A DNA stretch of 64,000 nt from Patescibacteria group bacterium (GTDB taxonomy: Bacteria; Patescibacteriota; Minisyncoccia; Moranbacterales; UBA2206), in contig JAUPKF010000001.1 of the NCBI GenBank assembly GCA_030837625.1, positions 23,496 to 87,495 on the forward strand, written 5' to 3'. A program made the translations under genes and the position numbers. Positions 36,050 to 51,953 of the stretch are shown here, one piece after another; the first letter of the stretch is position 1, and every line of letters starts with the position of its first letter. The notes below the pieces were generated by a model that was not told where the DNA came from, made no database searches, and saw nothing but the letters and a program-made list of their open reading frames with translations.

Positions 36050-36226
36050 AATTCACCTAATTTACCTAATTACCTAATTTACCTAATAAAATTCCAAAAT
36101 AACCAAAGGTCAAATAAAATTCCTAATACCAAATTTGAAAATTATTTTATTCAGTATTTGACCTTTCATTTTGCTATTTGAAATTATTGAATTTTATTAG
36201 GTGAATTAGAAATTAGGTGAATTAGA
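36050..36226. repeat. Family A roughly 180-bp palindromic intergenic element, 'cacctaatt' type, copy 1 of 5.
   Basis: Termini 'aattcacctaatttacctaattacctaatttacctaat' and 'attaggtgaattagaaattaggtgaatt' are inverse. Inner inverted repeat 'aaccaaaggtcaaataaaatt' / 'atttgacctttcatttt'. It begins directly at the eno stop codon. Confidence 0.8.
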
Positions 36227-36275
36227 AATTTGGGAAGACTGTTAATTTCACAGAAGCTAATTGCATTGCAGAACA

Positions 36276-37832
36276 ATGGCTCAACAAAGAACGCCAACTC
36301 TTCTTATCATCCTCGACGGTTTTGGCGTGGCGCCGCCGTCGCGGGGGAATGCCATAACGCTCTCCAAGACTCCGGCGTTGGACCGGCTGTTTGATCTGTA
36401 TTCGTCAGGTGTTTTGGGCGCGACCGGAACTGACGTGGGGTTGCCGGATAACAAGATGAGCGGATCGGAGTCGGGACATATGAATATCGGAGCGGGCAGG
36501 ATTGTCAAGCAAGATTCTTTCTATATTACCGAGAGCATAAAAGACGGGAGTTTTTTTATGAATCCCGCGTTGGTTGGAGCGGTGAAACATGTCAAGGCGC
36601 ATCAGAGCAAGTTGCACGTGATGGGTCTGATGGGAAACGCGGACAGTCCGCATAGCGATCCGGAGAATTTTCGGGCCGTTCTCAGGCTGGCGAAAAAAAA
36701 CGCCGTGGAGGAAGTTTACTGCCATCTTTTTACCGATGGGAGGGATTCTTATCCGCGATCCGCTCTGGAACATCTTAAAAATTTCAAAAAAATAATGTCG
36801 GAAGATGGTATCGGGAAGATTGCCACGATTTCCGGAAGATTTTACGCGATGGATCGGGCGAAAAATTGGAAGCGGCTGACCAAAGCTTACGATGCCATGG
36901 TTTTTTCCCGTGGGGAGAGCGCGCCAAACGCCGAGGAAGTTATCCAGGGGGCTTATGAGAAAAATCTGACAGACGAATATATTTTGCCGACTTTCATTGT
37001 GGAGAATGGAAAGCCGGTGGTCAAGATAGCGCGAAACGACGCGGTGGTTTTTTACAACTTGCGTTCCGATCGGGCGCGCCAATTTACCAAGCTTTTTGTG
37101 GCGCTCAACAAGGAACGGATAATAAAAGATGATATGCCGCCTCTCGACAAGCTGGAAAATTTATATTTTACGGCCATGACGGATTTTGGTCCGGATTTGG
37201 ATATTCATACGGCTTACAAGGGAAGGACACTGGAGGCGACTTTGCCGATGGTTTTGGGAAATCGCAAGCAATTCTATGTTGCTGAGTCGGAGAAATTCGC
37301 CCACGTGACGTATTTTTTGAACGGCGGTTATGCCGATCCGGTTGATGGCGAGGATCGGATGGAAATCAAATCCCAAGCAGTTGAAAACTATGCCCAGATT
37401 CCCGAAATGTCGGCCGGACTCATAACCAAAGAAATTATTGAGCGTCTTAGTGGCGGTGGATATGATTTCATAACCGCCAATTTTGCCAACGCCGATATGG
37501 TGGGCCACACCGGCGATCTTAAGGCGACGGTCAAGGCGGTAGAGTGTTTGGATGAACAGATAAAAAACTTGGCAAAAATAGTTTTAAAGATGGGAGGGAA
37601 TTTGATAATAACGGCGGATCATGGCAACGCTGATGTGATGATTGATCCATCATCCAGTCAGCCCAACACGTTTCATACTAAAAATCCGGTGCCTTTTCTT
37701 TTGGCGAGCGACAAATTCAAAAACAAAAAAATTGAAAGCGGCGGAGTGTTGGGCAACATCGCGCCGACGATATTGGAGATAATGGGAATTGAAAAACCCA
37801 AGGCGATGAATAAAAAATCGTTGATAAAATAA
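36276..37832 (+). CDS. gpmI: 2,3-bisphosphoglycerate-independent phosphoglycerate mutase.
   Basis: 'LLIILDGFG' N-terminal metal-binding motif, the catalytic Ser region 'SGHMNIGAGR' and 'TADHGNAD'. The ATG at 36276 is preferred. Confidence 0.9.
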   Translation: MAQQRTPTLLIILDGFGVAPPSRGNAITLSKTPALDRLFDLYSSGVLGATGTDVGLPDNKMSGSESGHMNIGAGRIVKQDSFYITESIKDGSFFMNPALVGAVKHVKAHQSKLHVMGLMGNADSPHSDPENFRAVLRLAKKNAVEEVYCHLFTDGRDSYPRSALEHLKNFKKIMSEDGIGKIATISGRFYAMDRAKNWKRLTKAYDAMVFSRGESAPNAEEVIQGAYEKNLTDEYILPTFIVENGKPVVKIARNDAVVFYNLRSDRARQFTKLFVALNKERIIKDDMPPLDKLENLYFTAMTDFGPDLDIHTAYKGRTLEATLPMVLGNRKQFYVAESEKFAHVTYFLNGGYADPVDGEDRMEIKSQAVENYAQIPEMSAGLITKEIIERLSGGGYDFITANFANADMVGHTGDLKATVKAVECLDEQIKNLAKIVLKMGGNLIITADHGNADVMIDPSSSQPNTFHTKNPVPFLLASDKFKNKKIESGGVLGNIAPTILEIMGIEKPKAMNKKSLIK

Positions 37833-37851
37833 TTTAAAAATAAAATAGCTT

Positions 37852-38865
37852 ATGAGCAAAATAATTTGTATCGGATCGGCGTGCAAGGATATATTTATGC
37901 CGACCGGCGAGGGAAAAATAATCGAAACGCCGGAAGATTTGACAAGCCAAAGAAAAATTTCTTTTGAGCTGGGCGCTAAATATGCTATTGAGGAGCGCTT
38001 TGAAACGCTTGGCGGCTGCGCGGCCAATGTGGCTTCGGGACTTTCTAAATTAGGAGTGGCTTCGGAATGCGTCGCGCAAGTGGGAAACGACGTAAATGGG
38101 ATATGGATCAGGGAAGAACTTCGCAAGAACGGCGCGGGGTTGGAAATGATGCAGGTGAAAGAAGGAGATAATAGCGATCTTTCCGCGATTATCGTGGATA
38201 AGTCGAGCGCCGATCGGACTATTTTTTCCAGCAAATATTCTTCGGGAAAGCTGGAATATGACCGTGAAAAGATGAAAGAAGCTGAATGGATTTTCATCGG
38301 GGATATCCATGGAAAATGGGAAGAAAATTTGGAAGAGATTATCCAGCTGGCCAAAGATGAAAATAAGCGTGTCGCTTTCAATCCCCGCGAAAGAAATATT
38401 CATGAAAACGCGGCCGAGATTATCCAAGCGATAAGTTTCGCGGAAGTTGTTTTTGTCAACAAAGACGAAGCGATTGAAATAGTCAAGGCGATGGATGAAA
38501 AAGCGGCCGACGCCGATCTCAACAGCGAAGAGTTTTTGATTGGGAAGCTGAAAAATCTCGAGCCGAAAGTGGTGGCGCTGACCAATGGGAAAGACGGCGC
38601 GTGGGTAACGGGCGATGACGGAAAAACATTGTTCGCTAAGGGTTTGGAAGTTTCGGCAGTTGATTCCACCGGTGCCGGCGACGCTTTTCTCTCCGGATTT
38701 CTCTCGGCTTACATCAAAGAAAGAGATTTATCCAAATGTTTGAAATGGGGCATCGCCAACAGCGCTAGTGTTGTCCAACATTACGGCGGAATCGAAGGCC
38801 TGCTTTCTGAAGATGAGCTTTCCAAAAAAGCGGAAGAGGTGGAAGTGAAGGAGATAAATATTTAA
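37852..38865 (+). CDS. PfkB-family carbohydrate kinase (ribokinase-like).
   Basis: N-terminal 'ICIGSACKDIF' and the C-terminal PfkB signature 'DSTGAGDAFLSGFLSAY'. Confidence 0.8.
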   Translation: MSKIICIGSACKDIFMPTGEGKIIETPEDLTSQRKISFELGAKYAIEERFETLGGCAANVASGLSKLGVASECVAQVGNDVNGIWIREELRKNGAGLEMMQVKEGDNSDLSAIIVDKSSADRTIFSSKYSSGKLEYDREKMKEAEWIFIGDIHGKWEENLEEIIQLAKDENKRVAFNPRERNIHENAAEIIQAISFAEVVFVNKDEAIEIVKAMDEKAADADLNSEEFLIGKLKNLEPKVVALTNGKDGAWVTGDDGKTLFAKGLEVSAVDSTGAGDAFLSGFLSAYIKERDLSKCLKWGIANSASVVQHYGGIEGLLSEDELSKKAEEVEVKEINI

Positions 38866-38875
38866 ACATAATCAT

Positions 38876-39289
38876 ATGAAAATTGGCATAATAGGTTCAA
38901 TGCAGTTTACTGACAAAATGGTTGAGGTCAAGGCGGATCTTATAAAATTGGGACATGATGCGTTTATTACGGACTTGCATAAAACCATGATTGGAAAAAC
39001 AGATGAAGAGATTGAACAAATCAAACTTCATCAAAAGTATAATATGGATGCGATTCGTGAGTTTTGAAATGCTATGCAGGGAGCGGACGCTGTCCTTGTT
39101 TTGAATTTTGATAAAAATGGCGTCAAAAATTATGTTGGTGGAAATACCCTCATGGAAATCGGTTTTGCCCATGTTTTGAATCAAAAAATATTTATGTGGA
39201 ATCCAGTACCGGATATGCCATATTGCAAAACAGAAATTGAAGCCGTCAAGCCGGTTATCATTGATGGAGATTTAGTAAAAATAGCCTAA
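38876..39289 (+). pseudogene. Nucleoside 2-deoxyribosyltransferase-like protein interrupted by a single in-frame TGA at 39065-39067.
   Basis: ORFs 38876-39067 and 39074-39289 are in the same frame. 'MKIGIIGSMQF...' plus '...ADAVLVLNFDKNG...GGNTLMEIGFAHVLNQKIFMW' together resemble one nucleoside deoxyribosyltransferase-like fold. Confidence 0.5.
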
Positions 39290-39299
39290 CTATATTATT

Positions 39300-41372
39300 A
39301 TGAATCTGGAAAAACTTTTTAATCCAAAATCAATCGCGGTGGTGGGGGCATCTTCCGAGGAAGGGAAAGTGGGAAATGTGATCGCGAAGAATTTGCTGAA
39401 GCTCGGTTACGCGGGTGAGGTTTTTTTGGTGAATCCCAAGTGCGATACTTTGCTTGATCGCAAGTGCTATAAAAACTTAAACGATATAGGAAGCGAAATT
39501 GACTTGGCGGTGGTGGCGATTCCGGCCAGGTTTGTCAACGAAGAGATAAAAAACAACGCGGAAAGAATAAAAAATTATGTTGTTATTTCAGCCGGATTTT
39601 CCGAAACCGGTGAAGAGGGCAAGAAACGCGAAGAAGAGTTGGCGCGGATTGCCCAAGAAAATGATTTGAATATTTTGGGTCCCAATTGTTTGGGTTTTAT
39701 TGTGCCGAAGTTGAAGCTCAACGCGTCTTTCGCGGGCGGGTTGCCGGAGGCGGGACGGATTTCTTTCGTGAGTCAGTCCGGTGCTTTGGCGGTGGCTTTT
39801 ATGGACAAGGCTGCCAAGGAGGGAATGAAGTTTTCCAATTTGGTTTCAGTTGGGAACAAAATGCAGTTAACGGAAACGGAGATCTTGGAATATTTGGAAA
39901 AAGACGCGGATACGAAAGTTATCGGAATGTATCTGGAGGGGATAAAAAACGGGAAAAGTTTTTTGGAAACAGTCTCGCGGGTGGCGCGCGAAAAGCCGGT
40001 TATAATTTTGAAAGCCGGAAAAACAGAAAAAGCCCAAGAGGCCATCAGTTCGCACACTGGAGCGTTAGCCGGATCGGACGAGATAATTTCGGCAGTTTTG
40101 AAAAAAGCGGGAGTAATGCGCGCGGAGAATTTAGAGGAGTTTTTTGATATGCTAAATTTGGCGGATAATTCGAAAGAAATGACCGGAGGAAACGTGGCAG
40201 TGGTGACTAATGCCGGCGGACCGGGAGTTCTCACGACGGACGCTTTTTTTGAAAAGGAGATAAAATTGGCGGAGCTGGACGGGGAAATCAAAGAGAAATT
40301 AAGAGGTTTTTTGCCGGGAGAGTCGTCCGTGGAAAATCCGATCGATCTTTTGGGCGACGCGCGCGAAGATCGGTATGAAAAAACTTTGGCGATAATCGAA
40401 AATGACAAAAATATTGATACGGTAATTTGTGTTTTAACTCCGCAGGATCAAACTCCCGTTTCGAAAATCGCTGAAAAAATAGTCGAGTTCAAAGATAAGA
40501 CCGTCAAAAATGTTACAGCTGTTTTTATTGGAGGGGAAAGAATAGAGGAGGCGGTGAAGAAAATGCGGGAGAATGGGATATGTAATTTTTCTTATCCGGA
40601 ACAGGCGGTGCGTGCGCTGGACAATCTTTATCGCTGGGAAATGTTCAAGAAAAGAAAAAGCAAAATTGGAGAAAATCTAATTAACCTGAAAAGGAGAGAA
40701 AAGGCAGAAGGAATAATAAATATTGCTAGGACCGAAGGGCGGACAGCGTTGTATTTTTCCGAGGCGAAAAAATTAGCGGAGATGTACGGAATAAACGCGG
40801 CGGTGTGCGCGGAGATATTGCCGAAAGATACGGAGGGCAAAGCTTTGCCAAAAATAGAATATCCGGCGGTTCTCAAAGTGGACAGCGACCAGGTGCTCCA
40901 CAAAACCGATAAAAAAGGAATCAGGCTTAATATCAAGAACAAGAAAGAATTGGAAAAAGCCGTGGCGGAAATGCGGCTTAGTTTTTCTGGAAGCCGGCTG
41001 GTTGTCCAGCCGATGGTGGAGATCCAAACGGAATTAATTTTGGGCATCAAGAATGATCCGATGTTTGGGCTGGTTTTGGTGTATGGCTTGGGTGGAATTT
41101 ACACGGAAGTTTTCAAGATGGTGGATTTTTTGGTTTCGCCGGTCAGTCTTGCTCAAGCGGAAGAGTCGCTTTTGAAAGGAAAATTGAAATTTTTGTTCCA
41201 GGAAACCCGCGGCCAAAAAGCTTATAATCTTGAGGAAATCGCCAAAATTCTGGTTGGGTTGGGATTTCTGGCTGGAGAAAATCCCGACATTCGCGAATTG
41301 GATATAAATCCTTTGCTCGTTTATAATAACGGAAAGTCGGCAGTGGCAGTGGATGTCAAGGTAATGGTGTAA
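39300..41372 (+). CDS. Acetyl-CoA synthetase, ADP-forming (fused alpha/beta NDP-forming acyl-CoA synthetase).
   Basis: N-terminal CoA-binding motif 'KSIAVVGASSEEGKVGNVI'. Succinyl-CoA-synthetase-like flavodoxin domain. Catalytic-His region 'ISSHTGALAGSD'. C-terminal ATP-grasp domain. Length 690 aa. Confidence 0.85.
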   Translation: MNLEKLFNPKSIAVVGASSEEGKVGNVIAKNLLKLGYAGEVFLVNPKCDTLLDRKCYKNLNDIGSEIDLAVVAIPARFVNEEIKNNAERIKNYVVISAGFSETGEEGKKREEELARIAQENDLNILGPNCLGFIVPKLKLNASFAGGLPEAGRISFVSQSGALAVAFMDKAAKEGMKFSNLVSVGNKMQLTETEILEYLEKDADTKVIGMYLEGIKNGKSFLETVSRVAREKPVIILKAGKTEKAQEAISSHTGALAGSDEIISAVLKKAGVMRAENLEEFFDMLNLADNSKEMTGGNVAVVTNAGGPGVLTTDAFFEKEIKLAELDGEIKEKLRGFLPGESSVENPIDLLGDAREDRYEKTLAIIENDKNIDTVICVLTPQDQTPVSKIAEKIVEFKDKTVKNVTAVFIGGERIEEAVKKMRENGICNFSYPEQAVRALDNLYRWEMFKKRKSKIGENLINLKRREKAEGIINIARTEGRTALYFSEAKKLAEMYGINAAVCAEILPKDTEGKALPKIEYPAVLKVDSDQVLHKTDKKGIRLNIKNKKELEKAVAEMRLSFSGSRLVVQPMVEIQTELILGIKNDPMFGLVLVYGLGGIYTEVFKMVDFLVSPVSLAQAEESLLKGKLKFLFQETRGQKAYNLEEIAKILVGLGFLAGENPDIRELDINPLLVYNNGKSAVAVDVKVMV

Positions 41373-41378
41373 AAACTT

Positions 41379-43097
41379 ATGGCGGTTTGGAAAATAAAAG
41401 AACAGGGGGAAAAATACGATCCGGAATTGGAGAAGAAATATCACCCGCTGGTTTTGCGGCTCTTGGCGCAAAGAGGCCTGGCGTCTTTGGCGGACGTGGA
41501 AAGTTTTTTTAATTCCGGCTATGGCGATTTGCAAAACCCGTTGGAGATATCCGGCATGGAAAAAGCGGTGGAACGAATAATTTTGGCGCGGGACAAAAAA
41601 GAAAAAATCGCGATCTTCGGCGATTATGACGCAGACGGCGTGACGGCTTCAGCCATTCTTTTTGAAGTTCTGACGGAATTGGGAGCGGCGGATGTCATTT
41701 CATATATTCCCGACCGGCAATTGGAAGGCTACGGAATGAATGAAGACGCGGTTGATTATCTGCAAAAAGAAAACGTTGAATTGATTATCACGGTGGATTG
41801 CGGAATAACCAACATTAAGGAAGTTGGAAAAGCCAATAATTTTGGAATAGATGTTATTGTTACTGACCATCACCATATTCCCAAAAACATTCCCGACGCG
41901 TTGGCGGTGATCAATCCCAATTTAGAAGATTCCGATTTCAAATGCAAAAACTTGGCCGGAGTGGGGGTGGCTTTCGCGTTGGCGCGCGGACTGTACCAGA
42001 AAATAAATCCGGAAAAATCGGAACAGCTCAAATGGATGCTGGACTTGGCGGCGATTGGAACAGTGGCGGATTGCGTGCCGCTTCTCGGTGAAAATAGGAC
42101 GCTGGTGAAATACGGCCTTATTGTTCTTTCCAAAACCAAAAGAGCCGGACTCAAAGAAATGTTTTCGGTGGGGCGGATTGAGATTTCCGAAGACAATATT
42201 CCCGACGCGCGGAAGGTGGCCTTTCAGATTGCGCCTCGCATTAACGCTTCCGGTCGGATGGACCATGCTAGTCACGCTTACAAAATGATTATTGAAAAAG
42301 ATACGGTGAAAGCGCGGGAACTGGCGCTGGAAGTGGAAAGCAAGAATCAGGAGCGGCAAAAAGTGACGGTGGAAATTGTGCGGGAGGTACAAATTCTGGC
42401 TAACAACTCTTTTCGCGATGAGAAATTTATTTTCGCGGCGAACCCGCACTGGCCGGTGGGAGTTTTGGGGCTGGTGGCCGGGAAGATTGCCGATGAATTC
42501 AGAAAACCGACCATCATTCTTCAGGAGCAGGAAAAGGAAAATGTTTTCGTCGGATCGCTGCGAAGCGTTCCAGAGGTGGATATTATGAAAATCCTGAACG
42601 AGTGCTCGGAGTTTCTGACCAAGTTTGGCGGACATTCCCAGGCGGCTGGCGTGGCGGTGGCGCGGGAAAATATGGAAAAATTTTACGAAGCTTTTTCTGC
42701 TGGCGTGACGCGAAAAATGGAGGGAGTGGATTCAACGTCCTCTGTCGATATTGACGCGGAAGTTTCCGCTTCAGATATCAACTGGGATTTAGTTAATGAT
42801 CTCAAAAAAATGGAGCCGTTCGGAGTCGGCAATGAAGAGCCGGTTTTCTCGGCGAAGAATATGATTGTAGTGGAATCGCGGGTGGTGGGCAATGGCAGTA
42901 AGCATTTGAAACTGTCTTTGCGCGCCGAGGGAAGCCCCAAGGTTTTCGACGCCATTGGATTCTCGATGGGGGAAAAATTTTCCGATCTCGCGTCCGGTGA
43001 TATAATAGACGCAGTGTTTAATTTGCAGGAAGACGAGTGGAACGGGAATAAAAAAATGCAATTAAAGTTAATTGATTTGAAGAAAGCAAATGGCTAA
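41379..43097 (+). CDS. recJ: Single-stranded-DNA-specific exonuclease RecJ.
   Basis: DHH motifs 'IFGDYDADGVTASAIL' and 'VIVTDHHH', the DHHA1 'GGHSQAAG' motif and a C-terminal OB fold. Confidence 0.9.
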   Translation: MAVWKIKEQGEKYDPELEKKYHPLVLRLLAQRGLASLADVESFFNSGYGDLQNPLEISGMEKAVERIILARDKKEKIAIFGDYDADGVTASAILFEVLTELGAADVISYIPDRQLEGYGMNEDAVDYLQKENVELIITVDCGITNIKEVGKANNFGIDVIVTDHHHIPKNIPDALAVINPNLEDSDFKCKNLAGVGVAFALARGLYQKINPEKSEQLKWMLDLAAIGTVADCVPLLGENRTLVKYGLIVLSKTKRAGLKEMFSVGRIEISEDNIPDARKVAFQIAPRINASGRMDHASHAYKMIIEKDTVKARELALEVESKNQERQKVTVEIVREVQILANNSFRDEKFIFAANPHWPVGVLGLVAGKIADEFRKPTIILQEQEKENVFVGSLRSVPEVDIMKILNECSEFLTKFGGHSQAAGVAVARENMEKFYEAFSAGVTRKMEGVDSTSSVDIDAEVSASDINWDLVNDLKKMEPFGVGNEEPVFSAKNMIVVESRVVGNGSKHLKLSLRAEGSPKVFDAIGFSMGEKFSDLASGDIIDAVFNLQEDEWNGNKKMQLKLIDLKKANG

Positions 43098-44790: not shown

Positions 44791-45402
44791 ATGCCATACA
44801 AAAACAGAAAATCTAACCGTTTAGAGAATTATGATTATTCTCAAAACGGTATGTATTTTGTAACAATATGCACAAAAGACAGGGTTGAGCATTTCGGAGA
44901 AATTAAAGATGGCAAAATGATTTTGAATGAGTCGGGAGAAATTGCGTTGAAAAATTTACGTGACGTATCAAATCATTTTGAAAGCGTATGTTTGGACGAG
45001 TATGTTGTTATGCCGAATCACCTTCACTGCATATTGGAAATTGATACGGCGGTGCAATTTTTGGATAAACCGGATGTAGGGGTTCAATTTATTGAACCTG
45101 TTGTTGACGCGGGGTTTGCCGAGGGCGGGTTTGATAAATCAAACCCCTACGCAGCGTGTATAGGAAACAATCCAATGTTAATGAGCAAAACAACATTGGG
45201 AAAGATCATCAGATATTGCAAGGCAAAGACGGCCTGTGAAATTCGTGGGAGCATGGATTTTTGGCAGTTTGCCTGGCAGAAAAATTATTATGACCACATT
45301 GTTCGCAATGAAATATCTCTCAATAAAATTCGTGAGTATATTCAGGAAAATCCAAAAACGTGGGAACGGGACAGAAATAATGTTGAAAATTTAAACATGT
45401 GA
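44791..45402 (+). CDS. REP-associated tyrosine transposase (RAYT, IS200/IS605-like Y1 HuH transposase family).
   Basis: 'MYFVTICTKDR', HuH motif 'VVMPNHLHCIL' and catalytic Tyr motif 'WQKNYYDHIVRNE'. A roughly 25-aa insert lies between the motifs ('VGVQFIEPVVDAGFAEGGFDKSNPY'). It is encoded by REP-like hairpins. Confidence 0.8.
   Translation: MPYKNRKSNRLENYDYSQNGMYFVTICTKDRVEHFGEIKDGKMILNESGEIALKNLRDVSNHFESVCLDEYVVMPNHLHCILEIDTAVQFLDKPDVGVQFIEPVVDAGFAEGGFDKSNPYAACIGNNPMLMSKTTLGKIIRYCKAKTACEIRGSMDFWQFAWQKNYYDHIVRNEISLNKIREYIQENPKTWERDRNNVENLNM
45077..45152. repeat. REP-like hairpin doublet inside the RAYT coding sequence. It is the inverse copy of the upstream REP.
   Basis: 'gtaggggttcaatttattgaacc' and 'gggtttgataaatcaaacccctac'. 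The flanks 'gtagggg ... cccctac' form an outer inverted repeat. Confidence 0.55.
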
Positions 45403-45412
45403 TGACAAAATA

Positions 45413-45460
45413 AAAAAAGCAGACTGCGCGCCGGTAACGCTGGGCGCGAATCTGCTTTGT
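45413..45460 (-). terminator. Rho-independent terminator for the minus-strand gene below (it may also act on + transcripts from the RAYT).
   Basis: GC-rich stem 'gcagactgcgcgcc' / 'ggcgcgaatctgc'. On the minus strand it is followed by a T6 run (the A-run at 45413-45419). Confidence 0.55.
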
Positions 45461-45484
45461 GAACGAGGAAAAAACGGAGGCGGT

Positions 45485-45817
45485 TCAGGTCGGAGACATA
45501 AGCATCTCGATAGCATCAACGAGATCGTCTGTGCCTCCTAATCTGTACCGATTTACGAAAATCTCCGATAATCTTGCCTCTCGCTCGGCTACGTTATTGT
45601 CGATAGCGCGGGGACAGGTCATACCGGGAATTCCCTGAATCAGTCGAACTTGTGCCTTTGAGACGGCGATGCCATCGTTCTCATGGTCTCTGGCGAAGTT
45701 GAGGAGGTCGGCAATTTCGGATCTTGTCAGTGGATGATAGTCAGGAAGATCTTTATCAAGAGGTATGTCCCCATAGGCTTCATGCGGGCATGGAATTTCA
45801 AATGCGTACTTTCTCAT
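45485..45817 (-). CDS. Hypothetical protein of 110 aa in a GC-rich (about 50%) foreign-looking cassette on the minus strand.
   Basis: ORF 'MRKYAFEIPCPHEAYGDIPLDKDLPDYHPLTRSEIADLLNFARDHENDGIAVSK...'. Strong SD 'aaggag' 9 nt upstream of the ATG. Has its own consensus promoter and terminator. No family was recognised. Confidence 0.5.
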   Translation of the reverse strand: MRKYAFEIPCPHEAYGDIPLDKDLPDYHPLTRSEIADLLNFARDHENDGIAVSKAQVRLIQGIPGMTCPRAIDNNVAEREARLSEIFVNRYRLGGTDDLVDAIEMLMSPT

Positions 45818-45923
45818 GACGTTATTTCTCCTTTCTGGTCTGGATTGGCTTGCTAAAGACGGTTGAAGTTTCCCCTCAAGTGAGGGCTTCCTCGACACTA
45901 AAACTTTTAAGAACTAATCTTAC

Positions 45924-45952
45924 ATTATACACCCAAACCCATGAAAAGTCAA
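45924..45952 (-). promoter_or_regulatory. Consensus sigma70 promoter on the minus strand: TTGACT, 17-nt spacer, TATAAT with a TG extension. It drives the 45485-45817 gene.
   Basis: The reverse complement of 45924-45952 reads 'ttgacttttcatgggtttgggtgtataatg'. Confidence 0.5.
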
Positions 45953-46789
45953 CCCCCCACCAATTCCAAAGAAAGATTAAATAATCAGAAGGATTATGGC
46001 ACGGAATCGTCTAGCGGCTCGAATTTTTCTTATTCTGAGTCAGGTGAGAGAATTGGTAGGGGGCAAGGCGCGTTAATCCAAGTTCAAAATCTCTGCAAGA
46101 CTTACGATAACGAAGGCGTGAAGACGGCGGCGATGTGCGGCGCGAGTTTTGTTATTGGAAAGGGTGAGTTTGTTTCGATAATGGGGCCGAGCGGGAGCGG
46201 GAAATCGACGCTGATGCAGATTTTGGGAATGCTGGACCGGCCGACGGAGGGGAAATATTTTTTCGAAGGGAAAGATACTTTCGGTTTTGACGATGACACG
46301 CTGGCGGGAATCCGCAACAAAAAAATCGGGTTTGTTTTTCAGTCGTTCAATTTGCTTCCAAGAACTTCGGTCTATGAAAATGTGGAGTTGCCGTTGCTTT
46401 ATGATTCCAAGCCGGACGGGCAGAACAGGAAAAAAGTTATGGACGCGCTCCTGGCGGTTGGGATGGAACATCGGGAGAAATATCTTTCCAATCAACTCTC
46501 CGGCGGGGAAAAACAACGGGTGGCGATCGCGCGGGCTTTGGTCAACAATCCGGACGTGGTTTTTGCCGACGAGCCGACGGGAAATTTGGATTCCAAATCC
46601 GGTCTTCAGGTAATGAAAATTTTACAAAAATTAAATAACGACGGACATACTATAATTTTGGTGACTCACGAGACTTACACTGCCGAGCACGCCGAGAGGA
46701 TACTTTATATGAAAGACGGACAGATTGTTGCTGATGATCCGGTGAGGAATCGGAGGATGGCGGATGGAGAAAGCGAGCTTTTGAAATAA
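45941..46789 (+). CDS. ABC transporter ATP-binding protein (MacB/LolD-type) with an unusual, roughly 50-aa Ser/Gly-rich N-terminal extension.
   Basis: Walker A 'GPSGSGKST', Q-loop, signature '[15 protein letters not shown]', Walker B '[11 protein letters not shown]' and H-loop 'LVTHE'. Confidence 0.85.
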
Positions 46790-46966
46790 TTCACCTAATT
46801 CACCTAATTTCTAATTCACCTAATAAAATTCTACAAGGCCAAATAGCAAAATAAAATTTCTAACGTCTAATAAGGATTTTTGAATTTTACATTATGAATT
46901 TTTATTTACCCTTTAGTTATTGGACATTTTATTAGAAATTAGGTGAATTAGGTAATTAGGTGAATT
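46788..46966. repeat. Family A palindromic intergenic element, copy 3.
   Basis: 'taattcacctaattcacctaatttctaattcacctaat ... attagaaattaggtgaattaggtaattaggtgaatt'. It starts at the ATPase stop codon. Confidence 0.8.
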
Positions 46967-47000
46967 TTCAGAATGATGAACTAGAAAATCGGTATTTATT

Positions 47001-48248
47001 ATGCGTTTCATCGATCCTATCAAAATCTCCTACAAAAATCTTTTGGCCGCGAAATTGCGGTCGTTTTTAACAATCCTGGGGATTATTATTGGCGTAGGTT
47101 CGGTAGTCACTATTATGTCTATCGGGCAGGGCGCCCAGGCTTTGATTTTGGACCAGGTGAGCGGAATCGGATCGAATCTGATCGGCATTATGCCGGGAGC
47201 GAGTGATGAAAATGGTCCGCCGGCCGCGGCCATCGGGATAATCGTGACGACTTTGAAATATGATGATCTGGAAGCCATTCGAAATGGACGGAACGTTCCG
47301 GAAGTGGAGGACGCGGCCGGATACGTCACTGGAACAGCCCAGGCAATCTATGAGGGAAATACTTTGGTGGCGTCTTTTACCGGAACAACTGCCAGCTATA
47401 TCAATGTTGAAAATACGGAAGTGCTCGAGGGGCGTTTTATCAGCAAAGAAGAAGAAACCGATTTGTCCCGGGTGGCGGTGGTGGGAAAAAATATTGTGAA
47501 GGATTTGTTCTTCGGCGAAGACCCTGTCGGAAAGACGGTGAAAATCAAAGACCAAAGTTTCGAAGTGGTTGGAGTTTTCAAGGAGCGGGGTTCATCAGGA
47601 TTTGGCACATCCAGTCAGGACGATTCGATTTTCGTTCCCTTGCGAACGGCTCAAAAGTTGCTTTTGGGAATCGACCATATCGCCTATATCCGCGCCAAAG
47701 CCAAGGATACGAATGTCATTTCTTTCGCCATTGCCAATATCGAAGTCACGCTTCGCGAACGCCACGGGATAGCTGATCCGGCCGACGACGATTTTTCCGT
47801 GCGCGACCAAGCGCAGGCGTTGGAGCTTATCAAGAATATTACCGACGTTTTGCGATATTTTCTTTTGGCGATCGGTACGATATCTTTGGCGGTGGGCGGA
47901 GTGGGAATTATGAACACTATGCTGATCGTGGTTAACCAACGGATACGAGAAGTGGGCCTGCGAAAAGCAGTGGGGGCGAAAACCGCCGACATTCTTACGC
48001 AATTTTTGATCGAGTCGGCGGCCGTTTCTTTTCTGGGCGGAGCGGCGGGAATAATCTTGGGCGCAGTTTTGTCTTATATTATATATCTGGTTATGCAGGC
48101 TCTTCAGTACAGCTGGCCCTTTGTGGTCACCTGGCAGTCCATCGCGGTGGCGGCTTTGGTTTCCATTGGAATCGGCTTGTTGTTTGGAATGTATCCCGCC
48201 CGCAAAGCTTCGCGGATCAGTCCGATGGAAGCGCTGCGTTATGAATAA
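47001..48248 (+). CDS. ABC transporter permease with an FtsX-like/MacB periplasmic domain, four transmembrane helices.
   Basis: N-terminal transmembrane segment 'LRSFLTILGIIIGVGSVVTIMSIGQGA', a large periplasmic domain, and a C-terminal FtsX 3-TM bundle ending 'YPARKASRISPMEALRYE'. Confidence 0.85.
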   Translation: MRFIDPIKISYKNLLAAKLRSFLTILGIIIGVGSVVTIMSIGQGAQALILDQVSGIGSNLIGIMPGASDENGPPAAAIGIIVTTLKYDDLEAIRNGRNVPEVEDAAGYVTGTAQAIYEGNTLVASFTGTTASYINVENTEVLEGRFISKEEETDLSRVAVVGKNIVKDLFFGEDPVGKTVKIKDQSFEVVGVFKERGSSGFGTSSQDDSIFVPLRTAQKLLLGIDHIAYIRAKAKDTNVISFAIANIEVTLRERHGIADPADDDFSVRDQAQALELIKNITDVLRYFLLAIGTISLAVGGVGIMNTMLIVVNQRIREVGLRKAVGAKTADILTQFLIESAAVSFLGGAAGIILGAVLSYIIYLVMQALQYSWPFVVTWQSIAVAALVSIGIGLLFGMYPARKASRISPMEALRYE

Positions 48249-48425
48249 TTCACCTAATTGTCTAATTACCTAATTCACCTAATAAAAAGTAAAATAACCA
48301 AAGGTCAAATAAAATTTCTAATGCCAAATTCAAAAATTATTTTTATTTAGCATTTGACATTTCATTTTGCTATTTGAAATTGTTGAATTTTATTAGGTGA
48401 ATTAGAAATTAGGTGAATTAGGTAA
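48247..48425. repeat. Family A palindromic intergenic element, copy 4.
   Basis: 'taattcacctaattgtctaattacctaattcacctaat ... ttattaggtgaattagaaattaggtgaattaggtaatt'. Confidence 0.8.
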
Positions 48426-48432
48426 TTTTTTT

Positions 48433-49686
48433 ATGCATTCCCTAATCGTTTCAATCAAACTCGCTTTCAAAAGTCTCCGTTCCAATATCGTCCGGACACT
48501 TTTGTCGCTACTGGGCATTGTTATCGGCGTGGCGTCGGTGATTTTGGTATTGTCGTTCGGTTCGGGGGTGAAAAATTATCTGACCGACCAAGTAGCGTCA
48601 TTTGGAACCGACATAATTTCCGTGGAAGTGAAAGTGCCGAAGGTATCGAAAACGTCTTCCGCCAATACTTCGGGGCAGGTGGGCGGGACGGTTATCACGA
48701 CCTATAAGTTGGATGACGCGAGAGAAATAGGAGAGTTGCCCAATATCAGCGCTTGGTACGCCGCGGTCGTGAGCCAGCAGGTAACCAGTTTTGAAGACAA
48801 GAAAAAACAAGTAATGATATTTGGGACGACTGCCGGCGTGGACGAAACTGATGGTCAGGTCCAGTTGGAGTCTGGCGTAATGTTTAGCGAGGAAGATGAT
48901 GACAGCCTTCGCCAGGCGGCGGTTTTGGGTAGCGGAATAAAAGAATATTATTTTGGCGATGGCGACGCTGTCGGGGAAACCATAAAAATAAAGGGGCAAA
49001 GCTATAAGGTTATTGGAACACTGAAAAGCCGCGGCGCTGTGGCGTATCTTAATCTTGACGACTTTATTTATCTGCCGCTCCAGACTGTGCAAAAAAAATT
49101 GACTGGCACCGATCACCTGCAATCGTCGGTTTTCAAGCTGAAAGATATGGCGAAGCTTGATCTGACGATTGCCCAGGCGACCGACATTATGCGTGAGCGC
49201 CATCATATCGACAATCCTGATGATGATGATTTCGCCGTCAATTCCATTGTGGAAGTTTTGGAAATTCTTAATAAAGTTTTTTTCGCGGTTAACGCGCTTC
49301 TTCTGGGGCTGGTTTCTATTTCGCTGGTGGTTGGCGGAGTGGGAATCATGAACGTGATGTATGTGTCGGTTGCGGAGCGGACATTTGAAATTGGACTGAA
49401 AAAAGCGGTTGGGGCTAAAAATTTCAGTATTCTGGCGCAGTTTCTCGCCGAAGCCGTGTTTTTGACTTTGCTTGGCGGATTTATCGGAATTTTTGCGGGC
49501 ATCTTGTTTTCCAAGGGCGGAGAAATCCTGGCCGCCAATTTCGGTTATGCTTTGCGCTTCACGATTGCTTGGTGGTCGGTTGCTATCGGTTTCGGTTTTT
49601 CGGCGCTGGTCGGGATAGTTTTCGGGTATTATCCCGCCCGCCAAGCTTCTCTTCTGACGCCAACGGAAGCATTGCGTAAAGAGTGA
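48433..49686 (+). CDS. Second ABC transporter permease (FtsX-like/MacB-type).
   Basis: Same architecture as the first permease. The C-terminus is 'YPARQASLLTPTEALRKE'. Confidence 0.85.
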   Translation: MHSLIVSIKLAFKSLRSNIVRTLLSLLGIVIGVASVILVLSFGSGVKNYLTDQVASFGTDIISVEVKVPKVSKTSSANTSGQVGGTVITTYKLDDAREIGELPNISAWYAAVVSQQVTSFEDKKKQVMIFGTTAGVDETDGQVQLESGVMFSEEDDDSLRQAAVLGSGIKEYYFGDGDAVGETIKIKGQSYKVIGTLKSRGAVAYLNLDDFIYLPLQTVQKKLTGTDHLQSSVFKLKDMAKLDLTIAQATDIMRERHHIDNPDDDDFAVNSIVEVLEILNKVFFAVNALLLGLVSISLVVGGVGIMNVMYVSVAERTFEIGLKKAVGAKNFSILAQFLAEAVFLTLLGGFIGIFAGILFSKGGEILAANFGYALRFTIAWWSVAIGFGFSALVGIVFGYYPARQASLLTPTEALRKE

Positions 49687-49732
49687 TAAAATATACAAAG
49701 TCGGTACTTACTCGCTTGTGGGTTAAGAAGCT

Positions 49733-49790
49733 GCGCGGGCCCGCCCGCCAAGCTTCTCGCATGACACCTGTGGAGGCGCGTGGGCATCTT
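49733..49790 (+). pseudogene. Remnant of a duplicated permease 3' end (about 19 codons).
   Basis: 'cccgcccgccaagcttctcgcatgacacctgtggaggcgcgtggg' translates to 'PARQASRMTPVEARG'. Compare the true C-terminus 'PARQASLLTPTEALR' 50 bp upstream. Confidence 0.45.
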
Positions 49791-49875
49791 TCGCGAGACT
49801 CTCTCGACATTTTATCGCTTTTCCGGTATATTTATCCACAGGAGGTTTTGTAACATTCAGAGGGTGAAAATAGGT

Positions 49876-50946
49876 ATGCAGGCGATTGAGCTTCTCAAAA
49901 ATTATAAAAAGAGGCTGGAACCAGAAATGAAGAAATATTTCCAGCGAAAAATGAAGCAAGCGGAAAAAGTCGATCCGCTGGCCAAAGAGGCGATCAGATT
50001 GATCGCCGATTTTACTTTGGCTTCCGGCAAGAGGATTCGGCCGGCGCTGGTATATTATGGGTATCTGGGGGCAGGCGGAAAAGACGGGAAAGAAATTTTG
50101 GAAGCGTCGATGGGGATCGAGTTGATTCATTCTTTTCTTTTGATTCACGATGACATCATTGACCGAGATGCTACGCGTCATGGCATCTCGACTTTACATG
50201 AGACATACAAGAAAATTGGTTGCCGGATCGCGCCGGGGAAAAACGCCGAGCATTTTGGCAATTCTATGGCGATGATTGCCGGTGATATGGCGGCGGCCAT
50301 GGCCAACGAAATAATTTTCAATGCTAAATTTTCTCCGGAAATATTGATATGTGCGCTGGACAAACTGCAAGACATCGTTTATGTCACTATCCCCGGGGAA
50401 ATGCTGGACGTAATTTTAGAAATAAAAGGGCGAGCTAGCGAAAAGGAAATTCTTCGCATGTATGAAGGCAAGACCTCGCGTTATACTTTCGAAGGCCCGT
50501 TGCACTTGGGAGCCATTTTAGCCGGAGCGGACAAAAAAATGCTGGAAGGATTTTCCAGATATTCATTGCCTCTGGGAAAAGCTTTTCAGATAAGAGACGA
50601 TATTTTGGGAGTGTTTGGCGATGAGAAGAAGCTGGGAAAGCCGGTTGGCTCGGATATTATCGAGGGCAAGCAGACTCTTTTGGTCATAAAATCCTTGGAA
50701 AAAGGAAATAAGGAGCAGAAAAAAATAATCAAGGATCTTTTGGGCAAGAAAAATTTGACGAAGCGAGAGTTGGAGAATTTCAGAAATGTTATCCGGGAGA
50801 CGGGGTCTCTGGAATATTCGGAAAAGATGGCGGAAAAACTTGTTGTAGACTCTATCAAGGCATTGGAAGATATCAATTTAAAAAACAAAGAAGCGCATGG
50901 ATTTTTAGAAGAAATTGCGCGCTATATGGTTTCCCGAAGCGTTTAG
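49876..50946 (+). CDS. trans-Isoprenyl diphosphate synthase (FPP/GGPP synthase family).
   Basis: First DDxxD 'LIHDDIIDRD' and second 'FQIRDDILG'. The ATG at 49876 is preferred. Confidence 0.9.
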   Translation: MQAIELLKNYKKRLEPEMKKYFQRKMKQAEKVDPLAKEAIRLIADFTLASGKRIRPALVYYGYLGAGGKDGKEILEASMGIELIHSFLLIHDDIIDRDATRHGISTLHETYKKIGCRIAPGKNAEHFGNSMAMIAGDMAAAMANEIIFNAKFSPEILICALDKLQDIVYVTIPGEMLDVILEIKGRASEKEILRMYEGKTSRYTFEGPLHLGAILAGADKKMLEGFSRYSLPLGKAFQIRDDILGVFGDEKKLGKPVGSDIIEGKQTLLVIKSLEKGNKEQKKIIKDLLGKKNLTKRELENFRNVIRETGSLEYSEKMAEKLVVDSIKALEDINLKNKEAHGFLEEIARYMVSRSV

Positions 50947-51046
50947 CCGGCATTGCTTGCTTTTTGTTTTTGGGGTAATATTTTAGTATTGGCATAAATT
51001 GCTCGAAGTTGAAGTTGTAAAAACTAAACCGCAGAGTTATTTCATT

Positions 51047-51760
51047 ATGGAAAAAAACTTGGAGAACGTTCCCGGGCATATTGCTATTATTCCCGATGCC
51101 AACCGGCGTTGGGCTAAGGAGCGAGGATTGGCGCCCTGGGAAGGGCATGAGGAAGGCGCCAAGAACTTTGAAAAGCTTATCAGCTATTCATTGAAAAAAG
51201 GTATAAAATGTTTGTCTATCTGGGGTTCTTCTTTGGACAATCTTTTGAAGCGCCCGATCCAAGAAAAGAAAGCTCTTTTGGATATTTACAAGCGCTATTT
51301 CACCCGCCTGTTGGAAGGGAAAGAAGTTTATGAGAATGAGGTTAAAGTCAATTTTATCGGACGCTGGGAAGAGCAATTTCCGGAATCTTTGAAAAAAATA
51401 ATTTACGAAGTTGTCGAAAAAACTAAGGACTATAAGAAGAAGGTTCTCAACTTCATGTTGGCTTATAGCGGGACGGATGAAATGATTCAGTCTATTCAAA
51501 TGATCCACGATAAATACGGTGAAGGAATCAAAATAACTCCAGAAATAATAAAAGAGAATCTTTATACCAAGGATTTGCCTCCAGTGGACTACCTTGTTCG
51601 GACTGGTGGTGAACCGCATAATTCGACCGGATTCATGATGTGGGATATGGCTGACGCCCAATACTATTTTACTGAGGAAAAGTTTCCCGATTTTACTGAA
51701 GAAAAGTTCCAGCAAGCGCTGGATGAATACGCGAGGAGACAGAGGAGGTTTGGGAAGTAA
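51047..51760 (+). CDS. uppS: Undecaprenyl (cis-prenyl) diphosphate synthase.
   Basis: 'HIAIIPDANRRWAKERGL' and 'RTGGEPHNSTGFMMWDMA' (the 'RxSGE...W' motif). Confidence 0.9.
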   Translation: MEKNLENVPGHIAIIPDANRRWAKERGLAPWEGHEEGAKNFEKLISYSLKKGIKCLSIWGSSLDNLLKRPIQEKKALLDIYKRYFTRLLEGKEVYENEVKVNFIGRWEEQFPESLKKIIYEVVEKTKDYKKKVLNFMLAYSGTDEMIQSIQMIHDKYGEGIKITPEIIKENLYTKDLPPVDYLVRTGGEPHNSTGFMMWDMADAQYYFTEEKFPDFTEEKFQQALDEYARRQRRFGK

Positions 51761-51802
51761 TAAATTCGGGATTATCTTGTATAAGGGTAAAACTGATTTA
51801 TT

Positions 51803-51953
51803 AAATTCACCTAATTGTCTAATTACCTAATTCACCTAATAAAAATTAAAATAACCAAAGGTCAAATAAAAAATTTGGTATTTAGCATCTGACCTTTTGT
51901 TTTGCTATTTTGCCTTTTGAATTTTATTAGGTGAATTAGAAATTAGGTGAATT
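51803..51953. repeat. Family A palindromic intergenic element, copy 5, slightly shorter.
   Basis: 'aattcacctaattgtctaattacctaattcacctaat ... ttattaggtgaattagaaattaggtgaatt'. Confidence 0.75.

Follow-up and report, generated by a model that had tools for sequence, protein, structure and literature searches.

Five palindromic intergenic repeats of a Patescibacteria contig are probably ORF-less relatives of rRNA intervening sequences

What is the palindrome that occurs five times within 16 kb of the 64,000-nucleotide stretch of a Patescibacteria contig analysed here (the whole stretch is called the window below), and what kind of sequence would lodge repeatedly between the genes of an operon? 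The first-pass annotation of the window had described five near-identical elements; all five were recovered at the positions given by that annotation and no sixth copy was found. They are listed here with the left arm of the first copy and with the folding energy of each copy (dG, in kcal/mol); IVS stands for rRNA intervening sequence.

36050..36230, + strand: c1, putative ORF-less IVS-type palindrome, subfamily A, in the spacer between the enolase (stop 36045-36047) and iPGM genes; dG -53.8, z -10.6
36050..36092, no strand assigned: left arm of c1, with 3-4 tandem 8-9 nt units (AATTCACCT, AATTTACCT, AATTACCT), its end being TAATAAAA
43520..43719, + strand: c2, subfamily B, between an RNase H-like gene (stop 43519-43521) and an HlyD-family gene (ATG 43728); dG -51.3, z -7.2
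46788..46966, - strand: c3, subfamily B, inverted, between the ABC ATPase (stop 46787-46789) and permease 1 (ATG 47001) genes; dG -47.4, z -6.7
48246..48428, + strand: c4, subfamily A, between the permease 1 (stop 48246-48248) and permease 2 (ATG 48433) genes; dG -47.8, z -6.7
51803..51954, + strand: c5, shortened subfamily A, between a UppS-like gene (stop 51760) and a thioredoxin gene (ATG 52041); dG -47.7, z -8.8

The copies measure ~150-200 bp, and each is predicted to form a single extended hairpin with bulges (dG from -47.4 to -53.8 kcal/mol, z from -6.7 to -10.6) whose stability was equalled in 0 of 200 shuffles, which bears out the folding proposed earlier. The right arm of c1 (36190-36230) is the reverse complement of its left arm and the same build recurs in 5/5 copies, in agreement with the common architecture that had been claimed, except that the inversion of c3 relative to c1, c2, c4 and c5 had been overlooked. 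The term 'near-identical' suits the arms, which are 92-100% alike, but not the interiors, which form two subfamilies (c1/c4/c5 versus c2/c3); c4 is 90% identical to c1 over 175 nt. The motif CACCTAATT occurs 14 times in the window (0.47 expected, 0 of 100 shuffles) and AATTAGGTGAATT, with at most 2 mismatches, 24 times (3.8 expected), all of them within the five copies. Every copy was said to start at or within a few nt of a stop codon, which is true of c1-c4 (no more than 2 nt from the upstream stop) but not of c5 (43 nt past it), and of the three copies said to separate the genes of one operon, c3 and c4 do lie within its ABC/permease part, but c2 is upstream of the HlyD gene. Both termini are retained in the copies (~40-57 nt each); in place of a gene, the interior is short and self-complementary, and no ORF was found inside any of the five, as had been noted. 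When the window was compared with the curated Rfam families at gathering score, the only match was 16S rRNA, with none at the copies; likewise 0/5 window copies are inserted in an rRNA helix, all five being located between protein-coding genes.

The family is multi-copy, dispersed, present in both orientations and common to several CPR phyla. Among the matches listed, its arm motif (tandem 8-9 nt units AATTCACCT / AGGTGAATT) occurs at more than 104 loci in public genomes, so the repeat is clearly not confined to this locus; such confinement had been named at first pass as a refutation. Nearly all of these listed loci are from Patescibacteria/CPR: about three quarters are labelled as CPR groups (Magasanik-, Sung-, Uhr-, Moran-, Nomura- and Portnoybacteria, Saccharibacteria and the Parcubacteria group), and the remainder are mostly MAGs that are unclassified ('bacterium') or that bear the label Gammaproteobacteria and contain genuine elements. 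The loci recovered number several to a dozen per MAG, dispersed pairs within one genome are 87-100% identical, and the termini 5'-AATTCACC...GGTGAATT-3' are found in 39 of 68 elements. Of the matches outside CPR, six from other records and two from viral contigs were rejected as chance matches or coding repeats. A match from Cytophagales (L022) exhibits a hairpin with tandem-unit arms, but the units are different.

Four loci (L010, L038, L094 and L099) contain elements of 473-510 nt in which the same arms enclose an ORF that matches PF05635 (E-values 1e-11 to 1e-13) and TIGR02436 (E-values 1e-17 to 2e-19). The full-length form, which we infer to be autonomous, comprises ~470-510 nt, with a pair of inverted arms 30-45 nt long, made up in each case of 3-5 units of 8-9 nt in tandem, and a gene for a protein of ~125-135 aa from the 23S_rRNA_IVP family (S23p, Avd-like four-helix-bundle; IVP below), whose ATG directly follows the left arm and whose profile matches the structure 2RLD in PDB. 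To our knowledge, IVP has no known catalytic activity and is not a known transposase. No IVP gene is present in the window, and yet its copies share 36-57 nt per end with the ORF-bearing elements at 92-100% identity, extending beyond the ATG of IVP. The left 49 nt of c2 are 92% identical to L094, ATG included, and retain 'AAATGTCCAAT' as a remnant of the IVP start codon; positions 135-182 of c3 match positions 49-3 of L094 at 96%, with the corresponding remnant at the right end, while c1 has the orientation of the ORF-bearing relatives. Among the elements recovered, every longer one with these arms encodes IVP and nothing else.

The association of arms and gene extends to a set of 71 metagenomic IVP loci, 94% of which have flanking inverted arms that score above the 95th percentile of shuffles; in most of them (by inspection, uncounted) the arms are formed by tandem 7-9 nt units. 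The unit sequence varies with the IVP lineage (CCAAAT, GACGAAT and TTCTAAT are sister units), and cross-complementarity of the arms correlates with IVP identity over the 71 loci (Spearman 0.40, 0 of 500 permutations). This co-divergence of arm units and IVP sequence suggests the hypothesis that IVP recognises the arm repeats.

The affinity of the family to rRNA intervening sequences went unnoticed in the first-pass annotation. In a Saccharibacteria contig (L082), ORF-less copies of 139 nt, 100% identical to each other, occur at two sites, one within a 23S rRNA gene and one a short way upstream of that gene; the copy in the gene (~583-723, inside the Rfam LSU match 340-1403) folds with dG -62 and z -10.4. 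Classical IVSs have complementary ends, are cleaved by RNase III and sometimes encode S23p (PMC4990558). Those with an S23p ORF (Leptospira, Coxiella burnetii, Xanthomonas, Brucella) resemble the family described here in size (~430-510 nt), in the terminal stem of ~28-45 bp, in the ORF of the same Pfam family that occupies the loop, its ATG lying close behind the 5' arm, and in a patchy distribution suggestive of horizontal transfer (PMC4990558). Both also have tandem repeats in the 5' arm: in the Coxiella IVS the heptamer GACAGAT is repeated three times ahead of the S23p ATG (PMC4990558), and in this family AATTCACCT is repeated 3-4 times. Unlike the S23p IVSs, the window copies are ORF-less, multi-copy and located between protein-coding genes, and excision by RNase III, the defining trait of classical IVSs, is a prediction for them. 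A survey of CPR rRNA genes reported IVP ORFs in inserts of 16S and 23S genes together with many short, ORF-less, uncharacterised inserts, which its authors suggest to be IVSs of the RNase III type (PMC11270868). These short inserts are similar to the window copies in host group, size class (<200-250 bp) and the lack of an intron signature; that survey was confined to rRNA genes and did not report arms of tandem units, families of related sequences or copies at other genomic sites (PMC11270868). Since the full-length form carries a gene long known from rRNA IVSs, the rRNA inserts and the intergenic hairpins appear to be one family, and the old unexplained rRNA inserts would thus belong to a multi-copy family that also resides between ordinary genes. 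The arms shared with IVP elements, the copy in the 23S rRNA gene and the 71 IVP loci together argue that the window copies belong, as ORF-less and non-autonomous members, to a family of small mobile palindromic elements of the rRNA-IVS type that is common in Patescibacteria/CPR.

The elements occupy presumably transcribed non-coding sites, namely spacers of co-directional genes and, elsewhere, a helix of 23S rRNA. Clear interruption of a gene was seen for 0 of 69 complete elements, with two running ~20-30 nt into the end of an ORF that had been called mechanically, and 47 of 58 lie between co-directional genes, filling the spacer. Between such genes the ORF-bearing elements are oriented exclusively in sense (46 versus 0 antisense), while the ORF-less elements with an ATG remnant are mixed (7 sense, 9 antisense). 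We consider it probable that the five copies are selfish ORF-less palindromes of the IVS type that persist in presumably transcribed spacers and whose stems would serve as RNase III substrates. The transcript of an element would fold into a stem of 30-45 bp, which could account for its tolerance in transcribed spacers, and by analogy with classical rRNA IVSs this stem is likely to be cleaved by RNase III. An rRNA insert would thereby be removed; in the mRNA of an operon, the polycistron might be cut at the spacer, so that an intercistronic processing site is a plausible consequence. In phage T7, intercistronic stems are cut by RNase III into separate mRNAs with stem-protected 3' ends. The likeness concerns the possible mode of action only, as the T7 sites are unique, non-repeated, bulged and of demonstrated function, while the window elements are repeated and their cleavage is conjectural; neither the window nor the loci retrieved from other genomes yielded a gene for RNase III (rnc). 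ORF-bearing copies may be retained only at sites where the IVP gene is read in sense by host transcription, and the others would decay to hairpins such as c1-c5.

Comparison with relatives points to mobility and turnover of the elements. IVP of a Sungiibacteriota MAG is 87% identical to that of a Saccharibacteria MAG. The enolase|iPGM spacer, which holds c1 in the window, is only 22 nt long in L195/L196 (with an enolase just ~80% identical to that of the window) and 31 nt long in another relative, and in L193 it carries a different hairpin; an exact empty site in a near-identical strain was not found. At the ABC|permease junctions, relatives have hairpins of unrelated sequence, except that L102, whose flank is 71% identical to the window, carries a member of the window family at the junction of c3. 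The orthologous ABC/permease junctions of four lineages all contain some hairpin, which could mean need rather than mere tolerance. It has to be asked whether the operon requires an intercistronic stem (a processing site, a stabiliser of mRNA 3' ends or a translational insulator), of which the repeat family would be just the current supplier. In the window, L105, L108 and L102, a hairpin of one family or another occupies the ABC|permease1 and permease1|permease2 junctions, the same spacers are at least 100 nt long in a fourth relative, and the elements fill the space between stop and start codon; moreover, strong hairpins are present at only 16 of 63 (~25%) junctions of the window, so chance is an unlikely reason for finding the same junctions occupied again and again. 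Against host selection, folding in sense gave the more stable structure for 25 elements and the less stable one for 18 (p 0.57), G-U pairs (125 versus 111) give no strand-specific signal, and copies without an ORF occur in both orientations, so a dedicated sense-strand function of the structured RNA that had been envisaged is unsupported. As for the covariation that had been proposed as a check, compensatory changes affect only 3 of 57 pairs within a subfamily and the covariation term is unfavourable. In addition, two relatives have nothing inserted at the enolase|iPGM junction, the same element is found inside a 23S rRNA gene, and nested insertions were seen, suggesting that hairpins attract further hairpins. 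We therefore regard host selection as rather unlikely, noting that a host-selected stem would overlap with the IVS-type explanation in the form of exaptation. The terminator envisaged earlier finds no support: the stems are A+T-rich, a T-run follows c4 only, no copy has a GC-rich stem followed by a T-run, and the 23 terminator-like sites in 35500-52500 are at the shuffle level, with 0/23 coinciding with an element. It is hardly credible that the elements control translation, with AGGTGA of the right arm as the Shine-Dalgarno sequence of the downstream gene and CACCT of the left arm as a sequestering anti-SD mimic. AGGTGA does match the complement of the 16S 3' end (GATCACCTCCTTTCT), and the arms of c2 and c4 end 9-13 nt ahead of the ATG, but most genes of the window have no SD-like sequence, the distance from arm to start ranges from 9 to ~90 nt across the five copies, the sister units mentioned above bear no resemblance to SD, and the same element resides within rRNA.

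The remaining alternatives concern mobility. The 'MITE-like mobile element' of the first-pass annotation was a sound description insofar as the family is multi-copy and dispersed, occurs in both orientations and across CPR, has an empty enolase|iPGM counterpart in a relative and shares its termini with a longer ORF-bearing element. A classical MITE, i.e. a deletion derivative of an IS moved in trans by a DDE transposase, with IVP as a passenger of some copies, would also have terminal inverted repeats, small size, no coding capacity and many intergenic copies, and the tandem subterminal repeats resemble multiple transposase-binding sites. Nonetheless, we consider it quite improbable, because the longer partner encodes IVP and not a transposase and a target-site duplication could not be detected: in 68 elements, direct repeats of 2-5 nt that flank the inverted repeat are no commoner than by chance, with the reservation that an AATT-like palindromic duplication would be hidden in the arms. 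None of the longer same-arm elements recovered encodes a known transposase; instead, arms and IVP co-diverge as a unit and the IVP start codon has a fixed place after the arm. The empty site of L195 is AATT-rich. Correia elements (NEMIS) of Neisseria are MITEs of ~100-155 bp, abundant as small palindromes between co-transcribed genes, and according to De Gregorio et al. (2002-2003) the hairpins formed by their inverted ends in transcripts are reportedly cut by RNase III, altering the fate of the mRNA. They share with the window family the small palindromic build and the location in operon spacers, but have simple 26-bp TIRs, a TA target duplication and no ORF-bearing partner, in contrast to the arms of tandem 8-9 nt units, the absence of a detectable duplication and the IVP-encoding partner described here. 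REPs and REPINs, too, are intergenic, multi-copy and hairpin-forming without target duplication, and REPs can stabilise upstream mRNA. A RAYT-type Y1 transposase gene (Y1_Tnp-like, 44761-45402) does lie amid the copies, and REPINs also form long hairpins. That this enzyme mobilises the copies as REPIN-like doublets is nevertheless very improbable and, judging by sequence, largely refuted, since the gene is flanked and interrupted by GTAG-type hairpins of its own (GTAGGGGTTTGAT...ATCAAACCCC) that are unrelated to the cacctaatt arms, as already noted at first pass. Besides, the window family has no GTAG-type REP motif, its arms consist of tandem units and not of single 20-40 nt REP palindromes, it spans many CPR phyla in association with IVP rather than RAYT, and RAYT is absent from the corresponding site in relatives.

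A bolder version of the IVS-type explanation, which we consider unlikely, is that arms and IVP constitute an unrecognised autonomous mobile element, in which IVP binds the arm units and promotes copying of the hairpin into transcribed sites. Such an element would employ no DDE, HUH or serine/tyrosine recombinase, but a pentameric, Avd-like four-helix-bundle protein that recognises the 3-5 tandem 7-9 nt units of each arm. Avd assists the reverse transcriptase of DGRs. Copying might proceed from the hairpin RNA released by RNase III with the aid of a host or DGR reverse transcriptase or, alternatively, via hairpins of single-stranded DNA directed at the loops of further hairpins. If true, such an element would account for how rRNA intervening sequences arose and spread, and would provide the first function for the S23p/IVP family.

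Two arm words of the cacctaatt family (palindromic elements with arms of tandem 8-9 nt units) are found in the window only within c1-c5: the 9-mer CACCTAATT occurs 14 times versus 0.47 expected, and, if 2 mismatches are allowed, the 13-mer AATTAGGTGAATT occurs 24 times versus 3.8 expected. Therefore, the window contains exactly five copies within 16 kb, which bears out their number and placement in the first-pass annotation:

36050-36230, c1, in the enolase/iPGM spacer
43520-43719, c2, before the HlyD gene
46788-46966, c3
48246-48428, c4
51803-51954, c5

In each copy one arm consists of 3-4 tandem 8-9 nt units (AATTCACCT, AATTACCT, AATTGTCT, AATTTCT) and the opposite arm is its reverse complement. 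The long bulged hairpin proposed for every copy was confirmed by RNA folding (dG: -47.4 to -53.8 kcal/mol, z: -6.7 to -10.6; 0 of 200 shuffles folded as well as the real c1-c5). The copies had also been described as near-identical, which is not true of their interiors, as these split into two subfamilies: c1 and c4 exhibit 90-91% identity, with c5 as a shortened relative, and c2 matches c3 only after reverse-complementing the latter, hence c3 is inverted. The claimed location at or near a stop codon applies to all copies but c5, which starts 43 nt past the upstream stop, and of the three copies thought to separate the genes of the HlyD / ABC ATPase / permease1 / permease2 efflux operon, c2 has to be excluded. 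Covariation within the window subfamily (3 of 57 pairs) is uninformative, as the sequences vary too little. The subfamily-specific 24-mer AAAATAACCAAAGGTCAAATAAAA was not found in metagenome contigs, the window permease is absent from the contig index searched, and none of the genome loci compared matches the window, weak rRNA similarity aside.

The elements of four loci from other genomes or MAGs (L010, L038, L094 and L099; 473-510 nt) enclose an ORF of 125-135 aa, with the ATG directly after the left arm. Its products match Pfam PF05635 (23S_rRNA_IVP, E-value 1e-11 to 1e-13) and NCBIfam TIGR02436 ("four helix bundle protein", E-value 1e-17 to 2e-19), i.e. the IVP or S23p family, whose profile also matches the five-chain PDB entry 2RLD; no defence-system model in PADLOC was matched by IVP. 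The window copies share with these long elements 36-57 nt at each end (92-100% identity), and in c2, c3, c4 and c5 the match extends to or beyond the IVP start codon. Since the ends are shared and no IVP-like coding sequence was found in the window, c1-c5 are ORF-less relatives of the IVP-bearing element and belong to an IVP-associated palindromic family.

When metagenomes were scanned with six aligned IVPs, at least 535 relatives were identified, of which 80 loci were examined. In these, the IVP gene is nearly always located between inverted arms of 25-60 nt, built of tandem 7-9 nt units, the total span being 420-575 nt; the unit depends on the IVP lineage (CACCTAAT, TTCCTAAT, AACCTAATTATTCTAAT, TTCCAAT, CCCAAAT, GACGAAT, GACCAAT, GGTCCAAG). 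For the 71 loci with enough flank, arm complementarity exceeds the 95th percentile of shuffles in 94%, its scores are higher within than between loci (p 1e-15), and cross-locus complementarity increases with IVP identity (Spearman 0.40, 0 of 500 permutations). The within-locus match together with this correlation indicates that the arms and the IVP gene diverge as one unit. No stronger covariation is available, and it fits selection for an RNA/DNA hairpin or two binding sites for one protein alike. In two loci we observed arrangements that look like tandem or degraded insertions: in L080 (455-500) an intact IVP element is preceded closely by part of another IVP reading frame (..YDLEERT..), and in L019 (2347-2950) an ORF-less element abuts an IVP element without its own left arm.

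Confinement of the cacctaatt family to the window locus, considered in the first-pass annotation, is contradicted by a scan for two adjacent arm units (TAGGTGAATTAG N0-12 TTAGGTGAA) in a single genome from each species, which reported at least 104 loci. Among the matches listed, about three quarters carry CPR (Patescibacteria) labels (Magasanikbacteria, Saccharibacteria, Sungiibacteriota, Uhrbacteria, Moranbacteria, Nomurabacteria, Portnoybacteria, Parcubacteria group), and the remainder are mostly unclassified "bacterium" MAGs or MAGs labelled as Gammaproteobacteria that bear genuine elements; six matches in other non-CPR records and two in viral contigs were rejected as chance or coding repeats. 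The matches listed include 69 complete elements (left then right arm; 70-510 nt), and several MAGs contain 6-12 separate loci each. The family is also present in cultivable TM7 strains. A Cytophagales MAG (L022, 1255-1440) carries a hairpin whose arms repeat units of the AATTAGGG / CCCCAATT type in tandem, other than those of cacctaatt; as this is a Bacteroidota genome, the tandem-unit-arm architecture may reach beyond CPR. Inspection of nested and tandem elements for clues to insertion sites revealed only GC-rich hairpins in loops and an expandable number of units. In L018 (2080-2115), L053 (1400-1450), L085 (7450-7490) and L193 (3810-3840), small GC-rich palindromes (e.g. TGTCATTCCCGTCCGCCAGCTGGCGGACGGGAATGACA) are nested in loops belonging to larger, AT-rich elements, suggesting a second kind of repeat that inserts preferentially into hairpin loops. 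One arm in the Uhrbacteria locus L101 (6955-7030) comprises seven perfect tandem AATTAGGTG units, hence the unit number can expand in a microsatellite-like manner.

Of the 69 complete elements, not one is clearly inserted into a gene (two extend ~20-30 nt into the end of an ORF that was called mechanically), and 47 of 58 sit between co-directional genes. They typically fill the spacer, from a few nt after the stop codon to a few tens of nt before the next start. Elements with the ORF are always in sense to their neighbours (46 "++", 0 "--"); among ORF-less elements with a residual ATG, 7 are in sense and 9 in antisense, and the window copies are split 4 versus 1.

The family is dispersed, in both orientations, and its presence varies between lineages. 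The enolase/iPGM spacer, ~213 nt in the window with c1, is reduced to 22 AT-rich nt in one relative (L195/L196; TAG AATTTTTAATTAAAAATTATTT ATG) and to 31 nt in another; in L193, a Moranbacteria CG23 relative, it spans 208 nt with an unrelated hairpin and a nested GC stem. The GCGAATCTACGAAT hairpin family, present in the window at 32427-32532, occurs in L193 at 5520-5640 between iPGM and PfkB, whereas the window spacer 3' of iPGM is empty (19 nt). In the relatives L105 and L108, hairpins of other families (CCCTCTCCC-, CGTCATCCTGAGG-, AAATCCCAAAT- and ATGCAAAATG-type) are located at the RNaseH/HlyD, ABC/permease1, permease1/permease2 and UppS/thioredoxin junctions, and L102, whose flank is 71% identical to the window, has a cacctaatt element at ABC/permease1. 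Dispersed copies within a genome exhibit 87-100% identity; between a Sungiibacteriota and a Saccharibacteria MAG the IVP is 87% identical and the whole element 78% at the DNA level. No target-site duplication of 2-5 nt was detectable in 68 elements, whose termini are 5'-AATTCACC...GGTGAATT-3'; a palindromic AATT duplication at the target site is possible. A candidate empty site from the comparison of L008 with L072 was rejected, as it is a truncated copy.

The cacctaatt family is also found as an rRNA insert. In L082 (Saccharibacteria) two ORF-less copies, 100% identical over 139 nt, are located just upstream of the 5' end of 23S rRNA and within the 23S gene, between positions matching E. coli 129 and 421, where the copy is embedded in a GC stem (dG -62 kcal/mol, z -10.4). 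L175 contains an IVP-bearing element 5' of a 23S gene with a tandem-unit-arm hairpin inserted at model position 583, which we take to be the classical helix-25 site of rRNA intervening sequences (IVSs). The IVSs and the S23p/IVP gene have been known since ~1990, with their origin, mobility and protein function unexplained; classical IVSs are ~100-750 nt inserts with complementary ends that RNase III cuts out, some carry S23p, and that of Coxiella has three tandem heptamers just 5' of the S23p ATG (PMC4990558). A survey of CPR rRNA genes described IVP ORFs as well as numerous short inserts, ORF-less and uncharacterised (PMC11270868), and IVP genes were noted between cas genes (PMC3936711). A literature search that covered few subscription journals revealed no IVP-linked repeats outside rRNA, tandem-unit arms or MITE-like derivatives; within this literature, a multi-copy, ORF-less IVS-type element in such a genomic niche is new.

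Other spacers of the window are also rich in hairpins. Spacers of 60-400 nt are present at 31 of its 63 gene junctions, and 16 of these 31 beat shuffles (z < -3.5), i.e. about a quarter of all junctions (16/63) have a hairpin element, not all of IVS type. Five stable intergenic hairpins follow the plan of c1-c5 with tandem units unlike cacctaatt, and four further spacer hairpins are very stable:

2651-2785, tandem-unit hairpin
30665-30792, tandem-unit hairpin
32427-32532, tandem-unit hairpin
54405-54507, tandem-unit hairpin
61308-61408, tandem-unit hairpin
57761-57983, further very stable hairpin
28552-28666, further very stable hairpin
22443-22530, further very stable hairpin
4264-4336, further very stable hairpin

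The arms of several of the window hairpins other than c1-c5 consist of tandem short units (AAATTACAAAT, TTTCTAATTTTCAAT, GCGAATCTACGAAT, GCGAATGATAGCGAAT) that resemble the arm types around metagenomic IVP genes.

A scan of the window at Rfam gathering thresholds reported nothing at the elements, and intrinsic terminators were rejected for c1-c5. So was mimicry of SD/anti-SD sequences (AGGTGA / CACCT): the 16S 3' end is canonical, yet SD-like sequence is absent before most window genes, the spacing between arm and start codon varies widely among c1-c5, and sister families have unrelated arm units. A RAYT/REPIN link to c1-c5 was likewise rejected. A GTAGGGGTTTGAT..ATCAAACCCC hairpin, unrelated to the cacctaatt arms, lies directly 5' of the RAYT-like gene in the cluster and forms a REPIN-like pair inside its reading frame:

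44753-45402, RAYT-like Y1_Tnp gene (213 aa, weak PF01797 match)
45076-45150, REPIN-like pair of the GTAGGGGTTTGAT..ATCAAACCCC hairpin
45485-45898, minus strand, unannotated ORF (137 aa)

This gene and the 137-aa ORF are an insertion between HlyD and ABC ATPase, the gap between which is 16 nt in one relative. It is possible that the hairpins benefit the host as intercistronic stems: in no lineage examined are the ABC/permease junctions empty, which is not expected at a base rate of ~25%. However, strand-specific selection on RNA left no signal, as folding favours the sense strand in 25 elements and the antisense strand in 18 (Wilcoxon p 0.57), G-U pairs number 125 in sense versus 111 in antisense transcripts, and both strands fold equally well. 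In its behaviour the palindrome is an insertion at the DNA level, and transcription of either strand gives a hairpin.

For such IVP-associated insertions we infer, from established knowledge of IVSs and RNase III, that the 30-45 bp stems are probably RNase III substrates; inserts in rRNA would therefore be harmless, being cut out, and in operons the polycistron would be cut at the spacer, as at T7 intergenic sites and Neisseria Correia elements. A tblastn search with an approximate E. coli query found no RNase III gene in the ~0.9 Mb compared, which says little for the source genome. IVP may be kept only where it is transcribed in sense, and because the arm units co-diverge with it, it is the obvious candidate for an arm-binding factor. 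IVS-type elements in CPR are not restricted to rRNA, but form multi-copy families in operon spacers, with plentiful ORF-less derivatives among the loci fetched. A handful of rRNA curiosities becomes hundreds of comparable insertions, and both mobility and the proposed IVP-arm recognition become testable by comparison and biochemistry. Some short "uncharacterised" CPR rRNA inserts (PMC11270868) gain an identity via one documented case (L082). Should these stems be cut, selfish hairpins may account for a considerable share of operon mRNA processing in this genome.

The permease and enolase have their nearest homologues (~79-82% identity) in Candidatus Moranbacteria / Parcubacteria MAGs. Every 1-kb bin of the window (1-64000) has a positive GC skew and nearly all genes are on the plus strand, as would be expected within a single replichore if the genome is small and has a strong strand bias. 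The 16S rRNA gene comprises 2021 nt versus 1533 nt in the model and has two hairpin-bounded inserts; the ~490 extra nt are typical for CPR. Within the window the gene is not followed by a 23S rRNA gene.

16478-18498, 16S rRNA gene
16976-17339, insert 1, with 25-nt complementary ends
17051-17254, ORF in insert 1 (68 aa, Cys-containing, preceded by GGAGG, no Pfam match)
18027-18112, insert 2, a hairpin with 39-nt arms

The A+T-rich stretch 3' of the 16S gene contains a gene for a DpnI-like restriction endonuclease of the Dam-replacing family (19817-20608).
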